The notes beneath the pieces are model-generated. The model saw only the letters and a program-made list of their open reading frames with translations, was not told where the DNA came from and made no database searches. Of a stretch of DNA of 64,000 nucleotides, positions 37,816 through 61,684 are shown piece by piece (the stretch's first letter is position 1; each line of letters begins with the position of its first letter). This stretch comes from Alphaproteobacteria bacterium (lineage in GTDB: Bacteria; Pseudomonadota; Alphaproteobacteria; UBA9219): NCBI GenBank assembly GCA_028690155.1, contig JAQVBU010000003.1, forward strand, positions 24,438-88,437, in the 5' to 3' direction. A program made the translations under genes and the position numbers.

Positions 37816-38453
37816 TGTCCATTGCCTTGCGCCTTGCCGCCCTTCGTCCCAAACTTGGGCAGGCAACCTTGATTGCCGTAAGCAAAACACACCCTCTTGA
37901 ATCCGTCCGGGAAGCCCTGAACGCCGGGCAACGCGTTTTCGGCGAAAACCGCGTTCAGGAGGCGCTGAAAAAATTCGTCCCCCTTCGGCAGGATTTCGAC
38001 GATATCGAGCTGCACCTGATCGGCCCCCTCCAAACCAATAAAGCGCAAACAGCCGTTGAACTTTTCGATGTCATCCAAACGCTCGACAGGCCCGCGCTTG
38101 CCGAAGCTCTGGCCAAAGCCAGCGCTAAGTCTGGGAAACGCCCACGTCTTTATATCGAGGTCAACATAGGCCAAGAACCTCAGAAAGCGGGCGTTGGGCC
38201 TGACGAAACCGAAGCGTTTCTCTCGCTTTGCCGCAACACGTACGCCCTGTCCGTTTCAGGCTTGATGTGTATTCCCCCTTTAGGCAAGGAGCCTCGGTCT
38301 TATTTTGAGGCCTTGAAGGCCTTGGCCAACCATTTGGCTCTGTCCCATATCAGCATGGGAATGAGCGCCGATTTTGAAACGGCCATCGCCTGCGGCGCAA
38401 CCGAGGTTCGTTTAGGCACCGCCCTCTTTGGCCATCGATCGCCTCGCGCCTAA
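37815..38453 (+). CDS. yggS: PLP homeostasis protein YggS
   Basis: IAVSKTHPLESVREALNAGQRVFGENRVQE. A GTG start overlapping the mltG stop gives a canonical N-terminus. The track ORF begins at 37776. Confidence 0.8.
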   Translation: MSIALRLAALRPKLGQATLIAVSKTHPLESVREALNAGQRVFGENRVQEALKKFVPLRQDFDDIELHLIGPLQTNKAQTAVELFDVIQTLDRPALAEALAKASAKSGKRPRLYIEVNIGQEPQKAGVGPDETEAFLSLCRNTYALSVSGLMCIPPLGKEPRSYFEALKALANHLALSHISMGMSADFETAIACGATEVRLGTALFGHRSPRA

Positions 38454-39544
38454 AATCCGCCGCCCGATTTGGACATCTGGCCGACAACGCTGAAAATCGA
38501 CATCATCGTCCAGCCAATCACGCCACCGACAAGCGCCATGCCGACGTTGCGAATCACGGCCGCTTGCGCCCGCATGGCCTCGACTTGATCTTGCATCCAT
38601 TCGTCAGCCACTTGTTCGATCACCACGCTGACATCCGAACGTTCCGCCAGAATTTCCAAGTCGATGGCCACCTCCGGCGAAGGAAAGTTCATCCGCGTTA
38701 ACCGCAACGATTCCCCAAGATTGTGGCCCGCCAAGACATTCTGACGCGTCGCCGCAATGCGTTCCCGCATCCACGGGTTGCCTTGCTCGCCCAAAATCTC
38801 GAGCGATTTCTTAAGCGGAACCTGCGCGCCCAAAAGGGCCGATAGCCCCATAAGAAAGCCGCTTCCCTGTAAAACACGATACCATGACCATGGGGGATAT
38901 TTGTCAAAACGCGATCGCAAAGAGCCGCGCCAAAACGAAAGGGTCGAGGTAATGACCACGGCAACGACGACGATGCCGAAAACGATCACAAGGCCCCATT
39001 GCGTCACAAAATCCGAAAAAGACACAACGGACCCCATAGAAGCCACAACGCTTGCCGGGGCGTTCGCCCGCATATTGGCGATTAGATTGACGCTAAAGGT
39101 CCAAATGACAAAGCCCACCAAAACGGCCATAAACGCCGGATAGCCGACGGCATAACTCACGGCTTGGCGCATTTCCTGCCCACGCGCATTCATGGTGCGC
39201 ACGGCGCCGAGAGCCCGAGCCAAAGAGCCGGATTCTTCGCCCGCCCGGATCATATAAAGTTCGGACTGAGGCACCCACCCATCCATAGCTTTCGACAAAG
39301 AAATACCCGCGCGGTCCTTTAAAAACCATTCACGCAAAGCCACCGCCGCCGGGCGATGGGGATACTTTCCCATTTCCGTCACGTTCTGATAGAGCCGGTC
39401 CAAAGCGCGCGACAACGCTTCGTTTGCCAAAAGCAAGCTTTCCAACTTTCGATAGATGCGAAACCGGGTACGCTTGCTGAGGCGAAACTGAACCTTTATA
39501 AGTTCAAGATTAACGGCGTTTAATTTGTCTTCGAGTTCGGTCAT
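38450..39544 (-). CDS. Type IVb pilus inner-membrane platform protein, GspF/TadB family (R64 PilR / BfpE / TcpE-like)
   Basis: A 364-aa polytopic protein with the GspF-like architecture (cytoplasmic N-domain, three TM segments). It is the last gene of the co-directional pil cluster and overlaps the ATPase gene by 4 nt. Confidence 0.65.
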   Translation of the reverse strand: MTELEDKLNAVNLELIKVQFRLSKRTRFRIYRKLESLLLANEALSRALDRLYQNVTEMGKYPHRPAAVALREWFLKDRAGISLSKAMDGWVPQSELYMIRAGEESGSLARALGAVRTMNARGQEMRQAVSYAVGYPAFMAVLVGFVIWTFSVNLIANMRANAPASVVASMGSVVSFSDFVTQWGLVIVFGIVVVAVVITSTLSFWRGSLRSRFDKYPPWSWYRVLQGSGFLMGLSALLGAQVPLKKSLEILGEQGNPWMRERIAATRQNVLAGHNLGESLRLTRMNFPSPEVAIDLEILAERSDVSVVIEQVADEWMQDQVEAMRAQAAVIRNVGMALVGGVIGWTMMSIFSVVGQMSKSGGGF

Positions 39545-60556: not shown

Positions 60557-60706
60557 CACGTCTTCTCCTCTTAAGGGGTTACAATCACACTCCGAACAAA
60601 GCAAAACCACATGCCCCATCCGAACTCTTCAGGCCTCGCCGTGACCTTCAAAAGACTATATTTTTTTATTGTATCCTTTATCATAGTCCTCTGACAAGAT
60701 CCTCTC

Positions 60707-61684
60707 TTAATTCAACAAACCCGTATTCAACAAACCCGTTCCAAACGTGTTGTCCATAACGAACAAGAACTCGAAAATATTAATGGCCAAGACCCCGCCG
60801 ATAATAAAGGTCAGCCCTTGAGCTACGGTTGCGTTCGACCCGCCCTCCACAACCTTTTTCATGACGAGCCAGCCGCGCACAAAAGCGATTGCCCCGATAA
60901 TTTGAACGAAGGTTAACGCCGCGTTGACGGTCGAAAAAAAATGACGCGACGCCTCGTCGTCTCCGATAGTCGCCGAAAAATTGTCCCAAGACAGTTCGGT
61001 CGCGACGGTTGCGTCCCCAAAAACAGATACAAGCATCGTACTAAGGCTACTGCCCATCGCCATCAAGATAGCGCCGAAACCGAGATTGGTCAGAATGCTG
61101 TGAAGCGAATTCGTTCGAGGATCCGTTCCATAACGCGAGGCCTTGATAAGGCCGTGCACCACCATGAAAAGGCCGCACAGAAACGCTGTCAGCGACGCCA
61201 CGCCCAACAACGGACTTCTGACATTATTGACGAAATTTGTAATCAACCCATCAAGGCCTTCGGTCGGATGGGTCGCACCGGCGTCGCACTCAATGTGGCT
61301 CCCGAGGGCAAATTCGAGGGTATTCTCCAGCATGAAAACAACGCTGGGAAGCGACAACAGGGCCGCCGAGCCTCCCAAATAGCAAAGGGCCGTGCTGATC
61401 TTGTTGTTCTGGGGCGAGTCGGCATGAAGCTTGAGCTGATACACACCGCGCAACGCGGCGATCACGCCACAAACATAAGAAATCCACTCAAATACGTTCG
61501 TAAACTCTTTCGCGTTGTCGAAAGCGAGGCAAAGAACCTCGCCGAACGTTTCCACTTGCGCGGCGGCCGGACCCGCCGACCCCATCCAGCAAGCGACGAC
61601 GACAACTAAAAATAAAGGCGTCGCGGGAATTTTTAAAAAATTCTTTCCAAACAATGGAGCCTCTTCATTTTCAAGGACATTCAT
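60707..61684 (-). CDS. Polytopic membrane protein built from three tandem VirB2/IcmC-IcmD-like repeat units
   Basis: Three ~75-aa repeats, each helix / basic loop / helix. The loops are LKLHADSPQNN, KASRYGTDPRTN and MKKVVEGGSNAT. Compare AKKHADQPSS in the downstream paralogue. Confidence 0.45.
   Translation of the reverse strand: MNVLENEEAPLFGKNFLKIPATPLFLVVVVACWMGSAGPAAAQVETFGEVLCLAFDNAKEFTNVFEWISYVCGVIAALRGVYQLKLHADSPQNNKISTALCYLGGSAALLSLPSVVFMLENTLEFALGSHIECDAGATHPTEGLDGLITNFVNNVRSPLLGVASLTAFLCGLFMVVHGLIKASRYGTDPRTNSLHSILTNLGFGAILMAMGSSLSTMLVSVFGDATVATELSWDNFSATIGDDEASRHFFSTVNAALTFVQIIGAIAFVRGWLVMKKVVEGGSNATVAQGLTFIIGGVLAINIFEFLFVMDNTFGTGLLNTGLLN

Follow-up and report, generated by a model that had tools for sequence, protein, structure and literature searches.

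What are three gene clusters that resemble the pilus and secretion apparatus of IncI plasmids doing among the essential genes of an alphaproteobacterial chromosome? The clusters lie in a stretch of 64,000 nucleotides (hereafter the window; GCA_028690155.1, contig JAQVBU010000003.1, forward strand, 24,438-88,437) from a metagenome-assembled genome (MAG) labelled Alphaproteobacteria bacterium, and the initial annotation had joined them into one dispersed, domesticated system of IncI or Dot/Icm type. Window genes were called as open reading frames (ORFs) and then scanned against Pfam and NCBIfam, and an IncI1 plasmid served as a stand-in reference for R64-type tra/trb and pil gene orders and protein scores. 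The ORF listing and the family scans place all three loci where that annotation had put them, each on the minus strand. We read the loci, with a probability of roughly 0.7, as fragments of two vertically inherited envelope machines, a Dot/Icm-type type IVB secretion system (T4BSS) and an R64-type pilus.

A Dot/Icm operon, a pilus module and a detached ATPase

The secretion genes form an operon at 59498-61684, with the following members (lengths in amino acids, aa):

60707..61684, minus strand: IcmC/DotE/TraQ-like inner-membrane protein, 325 aa; NF033883 TraQ, 38 bits (cutoff 80), over residues 147-315
60170..60556, minus strand: IcmD/DotP/TraR-like small membrane protein, 128 aa, placed by gene order and weak similarity
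59498..60151, minus strand: IcmJ/DotN, zinc-binding subunit of the type IVB coupling complex, 217 aa; NF038221, 70.7 bits

Judged by its sequence, IcmJ is a true homologue of DotN. Its match to NF038221 (E = 1e-19) lies below the equivalog cutoff of 100, and the DotN structures 5x42 and 5x1h in the PDB are matched at E = 2e-17, the two CxxC motifs falling into register. Cysteines C40, C43, C64 and C67 are invariant in 25 orthologues. The order icmC-icmD-icmJ is that of traQ-traR-(traS)-traT on IncI1 and is shared by about 150 related loci. The IcmC orthologue of an annotated relative (L002; L numbers denote retrieved loci) scores 58 bits on the TraQ model. The icmD-like gene is a paralogue of the N-terminal half of icmC and always stands between icmC and icmJ; its product has no match in Pfam or NCBIfam, and a profile of 28 orthologues aligns with IncI TraR in hhalign at E = 1.4e-4 (probability 53%). 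Searches of PDB sequences with IcmC, the IcmD profile and DotO returned no meaningful matches. We accept the IcmC/IcmD/IcmJ-like operon of the initial annotation as a genuine Dot/Icm fragment, of the mating-pair formation type I (MPF-I) class. As to architecture, IcmC is built in two parts and is 325 aa long against the 175 aa of IncI TraQ: residues 59-122 are 39% identical to the adjoining IcmD, and residues 147-315 are TraQ-like.

The pilus genes occupy 38450-46132:

45161..46132, minus strand: PilL-like outer-membrane lipoprotein, first gene of the module; PF10671 TcpQ, 57.9 bits
43430..45148, minus strand: PilN-family type IVb pilus secretin; TIGR02520, 268.9 bits (cutoff 287.65), with PF00263 and PF07655
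42180..43430, minus strand: PilO, type IVb pilus accessory protein; PF06864 PAP_PilO, 74 bits, full length
41492..42196, minus strand: PilP; TIGR03021 pilP_fam, 38.5 bits (cutoff 34.65)
39541..41394, minus strand: PilQ, pilus assembly ATPase of the GspE/PilB class; PF00437, 174 bits; 152 bits against IncI1 PilQ
38450..39544, minus strand: PilR, inner-membrane platform of the GspF/PilC class; PF00482 twice; 126 bits against IncI1 PilR

The gene order pilL-N-O-P-Q-R is that of the IncI1 plasmid minus pilM, and the best match of each window pilus protein is its IncI1 namesake. The PilL-like gene stands where pilL stands in IncI1 and in the relatives L006 and L135. Curated cutoffs are passed by PilO and PilP, with PilN falling below its own (269 against 288 bits); PilN is about 28% identical to IncI PilN and scores 147 bits against the IncI1 protein. 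The R64-type thin-pilus module that had been predicted is borne out, and what the window holds of it is a biogenesis module, not a complete thin-pilus locus. Complete pil operons are found in L062 (Micavibrio sp. UBA2400), L075 and L135, where pilL-N-O-P-Q-R is followed by one or more PilS-type pilin genes, a gene for an uncharacterised 200-aa protein and an ATPase gene. The window operon is broken, running from pilL to pilR, then through 4.5 kb of mscS-ctrA-rlmN, and then to the ATPase. Among the relatives PilS-type pilins (PF08805) are present after pilR, and no PilU, PilV or shufflon was recognisable. The pilin of the window genome is either elsewhere or lost.

Two observations on the pilus proteins stand apart from this comparison. 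The Walker A motif of PilQ is GPVNQGKTT, which is unusual beside GPTGSGKS/T and is identical in five of five clade orthologues (window, L006, L062, L075 and L135). A 158-aa protein encoded beside an IcmT-like gene and dotB (L056:13794-14270) resembles the middle part of window PilL (36% over 77 aa), from which PilL and a T4BSS-associated lipoprotein may have a domain in common.

The third locus is a single gene:

50662..51678, minus strand: PilT-like ATPase of the T2SSE family, 338 aa, detached from the pilus operon; GenBank MDD3029189.1

Its product had been described as PilT/DotB-like, and only the first half of that description holds. The protein scores 115.6 bits on pilT_fam (TIGR01420, cutoff 319), 80 on TraJ and 54.8 on DotB (TIGR02524, cutoff 463), and against PDB sequences 88 bits with PilT and 57 with DotB. 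The clade has a true DotB, encoded beside dotC and dotD, which reaches 388.5 bits on the same DotB model; on this difference and on its separate clade in a tree, DotB was rejected as an identity for the window ATPase. In that tree, a neighbour-joining one without support values and without a PilT reference, the pilus-type ATPases form one clade, sister to DotB/TraJ. In L062, L075 and L135 a homologue of the ATPase closes the pil operon. AIRNLIRE is a signature of PilT, and the family carries a similar motif, P[VI]R[ANS]LIRE[NKG]K, in 10 of the 11 members examined (the exception is L051); such a motif is absent from DotB, TraJ and PilQ. Because of the model scores, the operon position, the separate clade and this motif, the 338-aa ATPase is assigned to the pilus operon and read as PilT-like, probably with a role in retraction.

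By the curated threshold (116 against 319 bits) the protein is not a member of PilT/PilU. It is like PilT and PilU of type IVa pili in its best structure-database and model matches, in its Walker A and AIRNLIRE-like motifs, and in the tandem pairs of ATPase paralogues seen in relatives, which are arranged as in pilT-pilU. Unlike them, the window-type ATPase is the product of the last gene in a type IVb operon and, in the neighbour-joining tree described above, is sister to the DotB/TraJ branch. The tandem pairs (L006:9024-11017, L007:8978-11023 and L008:8957-11020) encode proteins of 326-345 aa and 338-340 aa; the window keeps the second type alone, with pyrC 26 bp away.

Relatives, residence and the break-up of the clusters

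Where do the remaining parts of these machines lie? A homology search with IcmJ gave 652 protein clusters, the named ones mostly from MAGs labelled Alphaproteobacteria bacterium and one from Bdellovibrionales. An IcmJ alignment was also scanned against one genome per GTDB species, which yielded 74 species loci, nearly all from MAGs labelled Alphaproteobacteria, Rhodospirillaceae, Micavibrio sp. or Bdellovibrionales/Pseudobdellovibrionaceae; the MAG of the window is not one of them, and the best is 62% identical to window IcmJ. The Bdellovibrionales labels arise because NCBI taxonomy puts Micavibrio under Bdellovibrionales, and the relatives of the window MAG that carry the system are Micavibrio-like MAGs. 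Metagenomes were scanned with a DotO alignment as the query. ORFs in all retrieved loci were labelled by phmmer against IncI1 proteins, window proteins and L002.

In relatives with 37-52% IcmJ identity the genes are found in the order g206-dotI-dotI-dotH-dotG-dotF-like-icmC-icmD-icmJ-icmB/dotO-dotM-g172-dotL, which is also that of IncI traM-N-O-P-Q-R-T-U. The part from dotI-H-G-F through icmC-D-J to dotO matches the order of Legionella region II, icmL-K-E-G-C-D-J-B. DotH and DotG occur in more than 50 loci and DotL in 25, and other loci contribute dotD (PF16816), dotC and the true dotB (all three in L056 and L074), a lytic transglycosylase and dotA (TIGR04346, 285 bits). The gene dotO encodes a VirB4-family ATPase that is mandatory in TXSScan and lies outside the window; it adjoins icmJ in 90 related loci, and 30 loci have no dotO after icmJ although over 4 kb of flank is available. 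In the closest relatives (L004, L011-L025, with IcmJ 56-62% identical) icmC-D-J or icmD-J stands alone amid housekeeping genes, and in L015 and L017 g206-dotI-dotI is followed by nusB and ribH and then by icmD-icmJ. Orphan dotO-dotM-g172-dotL blocks and solitary dotO genes were recovered in the metagenome scan. The orphan blocks and the icmJ genes without dotO therefore indicate that the cluster is being cut into blocks across the clade, most of all in the subclade of the window. Each machine would have been one contiguous operon, as in deeper-branching relatives, and rearrangements in the window's lineage would have left the blocks between housekeeping genes, intact, at conserved positions and under purifying selection.

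Two side observations concern the cluster in relatives. A g206-like gene of 150-200 aa heads it, before dotI, and is the first gene in 27 distinct loci (for example L002:1061-1681 and, in the same MAG as the window, L085:7989-8489). Its product has a helix-turn-helix resembling the GcrA N-terminus (a weak PF07750 match in 25 of 27, best E 7.6e-6) and, at the C-terminus, a zinc ribbon of the form CxxC...CxxC, features that make it a candidate dedicated regulator of the secretion system. In L045 foreign or housekeeping genes are wedged into the cluster, with a PtuA/MADS3-like defence ATPase and tyrS between icmJ and dotA (12280-13569).

The window genome itself holds a further piece. Whether it contained additional T4BSS components had been set beforehand as a check, and two copies of DotI/IcmL were found on another contig of the same MAG. 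One of them (P0287, MDD3028684.1) was found by homology search with the DotI of the close relative L017. P0287 is encoded on a 268-kb contig and window IcmJ on one of 149 kb. The P0287 accession is 513 numbers before that of window IcmJ (MDD3029197.1, locus tag PHS57_02810), and the IcmJ locus tag corresponds to about the 562nd gene. Moreover, the Logan contig carrying DotI (L085) and the Logan copy of the window come from the same SRA run, SRR22315505. The shared run and accession block thus show that the same MAG holds at least one more dispersed T4BSS fragment. On L085 the g206-like gene and the two dotI genes (PF11393) stand between cobS and nusB-ribH-ribB.

Long residence, as opposed to recent arrival on an island, had been argued from the interleaving with essential genes, and the comparative data agree. 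A block of purH, an SNase gene, a DnaJ-domain gene and icmC-D-J is common to six GTDB species (L011, L012, L013, L019, L020 and L024), and the block pyrC-ATPase-rlmN-ctrA-pilL..pilR is common to the window and L006. The ratio of nonsynonymous to synonymous substitution rates (dN/dS), calculated by the method of Nei and Gojobori for pairs with dS of about 0.8-1.4, is 0.14-0.25 for icmJ, 0.2-0.5 for icmD and 0.25-0.39 for icmC in the dispersed subclade. G+C content is flat (pilus cluster 0.54-0.575, icmCDJ 0.49-0.55, window mean about 0.55). The sole tRNA gene in the window is at 2969, and no integrase was found among the scanned window ORFs. The relaxase that was to be looked for was not found either: NikB, the one relaxase family tested, has no homologue in the window, nor in the roughly 160 loci scanned with 10 kb of flank. 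Conserved synteny, dN/dS below 0.5, flat G+C content and the lack of a relaxase, an integrase or a nearby tRNA gene therefore indicate long residence. The genes are conserved and selected, neither a fresh island nor obvious relics, and the fragments are vertically inherited, old and chromosomal.

These results bear directly on the idea that the loci are a recently integrated, partly disrupted IncI-like conjugative plasmid or integrative and conjugative element. The orders pilL-N-O-P-Q-R and traQ-R-T, both as in IncI1, speak for it. However, besides the composition, which equals the background, and the lack of mobility genes and of flanking tRNA genes or repeats, PilN is too distant from its plasmid counterpart, the flanking synteny extends over several species that differ by about 40% in IcmJ, and the loci are separated from one another by ctrA, rlmN, clpB and other housekeeping genes. 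A recent island or element was rejected on these grounds, and we regard it as highly improbable.

A second alternative accepts the age of the fragments and denies their use: the T4BSS would be decaying in the window's lineage, with icmC-D-J and dotI left over or recruited elsewhere and no working system remaining. Nothing but fragments was seen for the window genome, breaks in the cluster occur at many places in the clade, icmC is absent beside icmD-icmJ in some close relatives, and one ATPase paralogue has been lost, all of which would be expected of decay. Against this, the ORFs are intact and constrained at the dN/dS values given above, the zinc-binding cysteines of IcmJ are invariant, the chromosomal position is kept in at least seven species and the promoter box described below is conserved. 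The dotI pair and the regulator-like gene upstream of it are also intact in the same MAG, and the dotO-dotM-dotL blocks in metagenomes are orphaned but intact. We consider decay improbable and favour two inherited machines that have been dispersed and kept; the remaining T4BSS genes and the pilin would lie elsewhere in the genome, and both machines would be working.

Shared junctions, promoter boxes and CtrA

Do the pilus and the secretion system belong together? They may be unrelated, with the pilus serving adhesion, motility or DNA uptake, the T4BSS being separate, and their nearness a product of genome shuffling. The two are adjacent in only 5 of 159 loci, close to the 1-2% expected by chance (an estimate from genome and flank sizes), and R64-type pil clusters without a T4BSS occur elsewhere, for example on a Pseudomonas plasmid among the PilN matches. 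Moreover, by bit score the T4BSS of the clade is nearer to the Dot/Icm system of Legionellales than to IncI, with clade DotB reaching 350 bits on the Legionella DotB structure, compared with 181 on TraJ, and IcmJ 67 bits on DotN, compared with 16 on TraT. On the other side, there are three different kinds of tight junction. In L062, L075 and L135 the pil operon and dotO are convergent, 12-21 bp apart; in L045 pilR-pilS-pilS leads into g206-dotI without a change of strand; and in L051 the ATPase adjoins dotA. The same box precedes the pilus ATPase and icmC/icmD, and IncI plasmids are the best-known setting in which a T4BSS and an R64-type pilus occur together. We judge two unrelated machines to be somewhat unlikely, though a serious competitor. 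Physical linkage was tried as proof of a common IncI-like origin and set aside as too weak; linkage alone leaves both a common IncI-like origin and a joint function unproven. Of the IncI/Dot-Icm-like nature first proposed, the Dot/Icm-like part is retained, and a single IncI-like ancestry for pilus and T4BSS is not.

The boxes in question, and the regulator gene that may be connected with them, are as follows:

61744..61758: TTAA-N7-TTAA box, exact match, 74 nt upstream of the icmC start
51778..51792: TTAA-N7-TTAA box, exact match, TTAAGCCGATTTTAAC on the gene's strand, 114 nt upstream of the ATPase start
56490-56504: TTAA-N7-TTAA box, exact match, upstream of a FliL-like gene
48699..49418, plus strand: ctrA; NF045991 CtrA equivalog, 422.7 bits (cutoff 350)

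These are the only exact sites in the 64 kb, three where 0.67 are expected (4 of 100 shuffles reach three), and all three lie directly upstream of genes inside the span of the three loci. Across loci, 46 of 112 icmC genes and 51 of 144 icmD genes have an exact box in the 250 nt upstream, compared with 3.6% of other genes, or 7% of those with an upstream gap. Loci with the box before icmC or icmD include L002, L004 and L011-L025. Forty of the 66 GTDB species loci have a box before icmC or icmD. Detached ATPase genes have one in all four lineages, including L006, L007 and L008. Across loci pilL and g206 have no box upstream and dotI has almost none, and a search of the window with one mismatch allowed gave 20 sites for 14.5 expected, which is not above chance.

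TTAA-N7-TTAA is the consensus of CtrA (PMC11264516, PMC9437464). In the window and in L006 ctrA lies between the pilus cluster and the ATPase, and the L006 CtrA is 94% identical. Given a ctrA gene between the loci and boxes that fit the CtrA consensus, CtrA is a candidate regulator that may read them, although the geometry of PmrA-type sites is identical. PmrA boxes are hexamers 5 bp apart, the geometry described for Salmonella and Klebsiella (PMC3973317), and PmrA sites are found before dot/icm operons in Coxiella (PMC4117601). If CtrA reads the boxes, it would co-regulate the secretion system and the pilus motor.

Several observations weigh against our reading. The window contains 3 of more than 20 Dot/Icm genes and the MAG 2-3 more, in the one extra fragment found; none of IcmB/DotO, DotL, DotM, DotG, DotH, DotC, DotD, DotB and DotA is among the genes of the window and that fragment. 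The window lacks a pilin, a prepilin peptidase and an adhesin, and shows no GFTLIE-type motif; the PilS and X198 proteins of relatives have no tblastn homologue in it. The assignment of IcmD combines weak sequence similarity with gene order, icmC does not adjoin icmD-icmJ in the close relatives L004, L015, L016 and L017, and of the two tandem ATPase paralogues the window has lost one. The ATPase tree is a neighbour-joining tree without support values. In the window no box precedes icmD or pilL, the box is AT-rich and so favoured in intergenic DNA, and its geometry fits PmrA-type regulators as well (PMC3973317). The near-chance adjacency of pilus and T4BSS genes belongs here too.

A comparison with known systems places the two machines more closely. 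As in the Dot/Icm system of Legionellales, IcmJ/DotN keeps the zinc-binding cysteines and IcmC and IcmD are probably homologous; the relatives hold DotI, DotH, DotG, DotF, DotO, DotM, DotL, DotA, DotB, DotC and DotD; no relaxase was seen in the local search with the NikB family; and a TTAA-N7-TTAA-type box stands before icm operons, as PmrA sites stand before dot/icm in Coxiella (PMC4117601). Unlike that system, the host of the clade system is an alphaproteobacterium with CtrA, the genes of the window's lineage are split into short blocks with housekeeping genes around them, IcmC exceeds its counterpart by about 130 aa and has an N-terminal half that resembles IcmD, and a GcrA-like zinc-ribbon gene heads the cluster. 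No IcmS/W/Q/R-type adaptors turned up, and no search was aimed at them.

IncI1 plasmids, of the R64 type, likewise combine a T4BSS with a type IVb pilus in the order pilL-(M)-N-O-P-Q-R-S, and have traQ-traR-(S)-traT in the order of icmC-icmD-icmJ. The window genes differ from them in being chromosomal and without the relaxase NikB. No pilM, pilV or shufflon was seen, nor homologues of TraV, W, X or TrbB, and a PilT-like ATPase ends the clade pilus operon, a gene missing from the IncI1 pil region as annotated. The sequences are only distantly alike (28% identity for PilN) and the secretion proteins are nearer to Dot/Icm than to Tra. PAPI-1/pKLC102-type pili belong to mobile elements whose type IV secretion system (T4SS) is of G type. 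The PAPI-1/pKLC102 cluster (pilL2-pilV2) has a PilN-family secretin, PilO2 and PilP in the same order, and the Pseudomonas plasmid named above is among the PilN matches; the window cluster differs in being chromosomally fixed, in having no pilin in the window and in its PilT-like ATPase. For dispersal, a parallel is offered by the rvh (VirB-type) T4SS of Rickettsiales, host-dependent alphaproteobacteria in which the genes lie in several chromosomal islets and the system is still functional. There too a T4SS is split into islets in an alphaproteobacterial chromosome, but rvh is of type IVA (P-type) and the clade system of type IVB.

The rest of the window is unremarkable in this respect. The genes between the three loci are ctrA, rlmN, pyrC, ndk, clpB, the FliL-like gene, rpiB, coaC and coaB, and family scans confirm the interleaving with ctrA, rlmN, pyrC, clpB and coaBC that had been reported, the last as two ORFs. 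These (56999-58111 and 58108-59352) share 4 bases; the first combines a CoaC domain (residues 21-183) with an extension of about 190 aa, and in the second some 190 aa of N-terminal extension, faintly matching CoaB, precede the CoaB domain. The other 38 kb hold housekeeping genes (PBP1A, pheST, typA, mutS, RNase J, aroA, mltG, grpE and others), with no further T4BSS genes by the Pfam and NCBIfam scans. ORFs at 212-1944 were rejected as genes, being wrong-frame readings of the PBP1A gene. At 3234-5144 a 636-aa secreted low-complexity protein, rich in Pro, Ala, Lys and Glu, carries a C-terminal OmpA peptidoglycan-binding domain and no second family match.

A dispersed secretion system around Micavibrio

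How would the parts work together? On our reading of two inherited machines, the T4BSS (class pT4SSi in TXSScan) would be represented in the window by icmC/dotE, icmD/dotP and icmJ/dotN, no relaxase having been seen with it. IcmJ would bind zinc and join DotL-DotM in the coupling complex, and IcmC and IcmD would be small inner-membrane components. The pilus would be assembled from the PilL lipoprotein and PilN secretin in the outer membrane together with PilO and PilP, the PilQ assembly ATPase and the PilR platform, and the second, PilT-like ATPase would probably retract it. The pilus might then bring the cell to its target, a bacterial prey cell or a protist, into which the T4BSS would inject proteins. 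A bolder extension makes the T4BSS and the retractile R64-type pilus one CtrA-timed attack apparatus of a motile attack-phase cell, possibly for bacterial prey, and TTAA-N7-TTAA an old type IVB regulatory feature held in common with the PmrA-controlled dot/icm genes of Coxiella and Legionella. We offer this extension as a speculation that is more doubtful than not by a wide degree.

Reviews treat the T4BSS as a trait of Legionellales and a few other Gammaproteobacteria (PMC11338181, PMC8896642). Its occurrence in Micavibrionales MAGs is already known, from a passing mention of pT4SSi, called by TXSScan, in seven marine ones (PMC9418006). The genome paper on Micavibrio aeruginosavorus ARL-13 describes dispersed type IV pilus genes, and a search of its text by keyword turned up nothing on Dot/Icm (PMC3189940). 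In the literature we found no account of the fragmentation, of the pilus module with its PilT-like ATPase, or of the boxes.

Dot/Icm is usually regarded as a hallmark of Legionellales and as a sign that a lineage adapted to eukaryotic hosts long ago. The present data put a machine of Dot/Icm type in an uncultured clade that surrounds the epibiotic predator Micavibrio, and it is widespread there, with 74 GTDB species and over 600 protein clusters from metagenomes; it has been inherited vertically for long enough to be broken into islets amid essential genes, and selection still acts on it. Secretion-system finders that require co-localisation will miss such dispersed systems. The clade also provides a natural series of genomes in which a cluster is progressively fragmented, from which it may be learned which genes must stay together, and it suggests a testable regulatory link to CtrA, the alphaproteobacterial cell-cycle regulator. 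Taken together, these findings widen the host range and the evolutionary history of type IVB secretion, and they raise the question of whether effectors are injected into bacterial prey or into protists.

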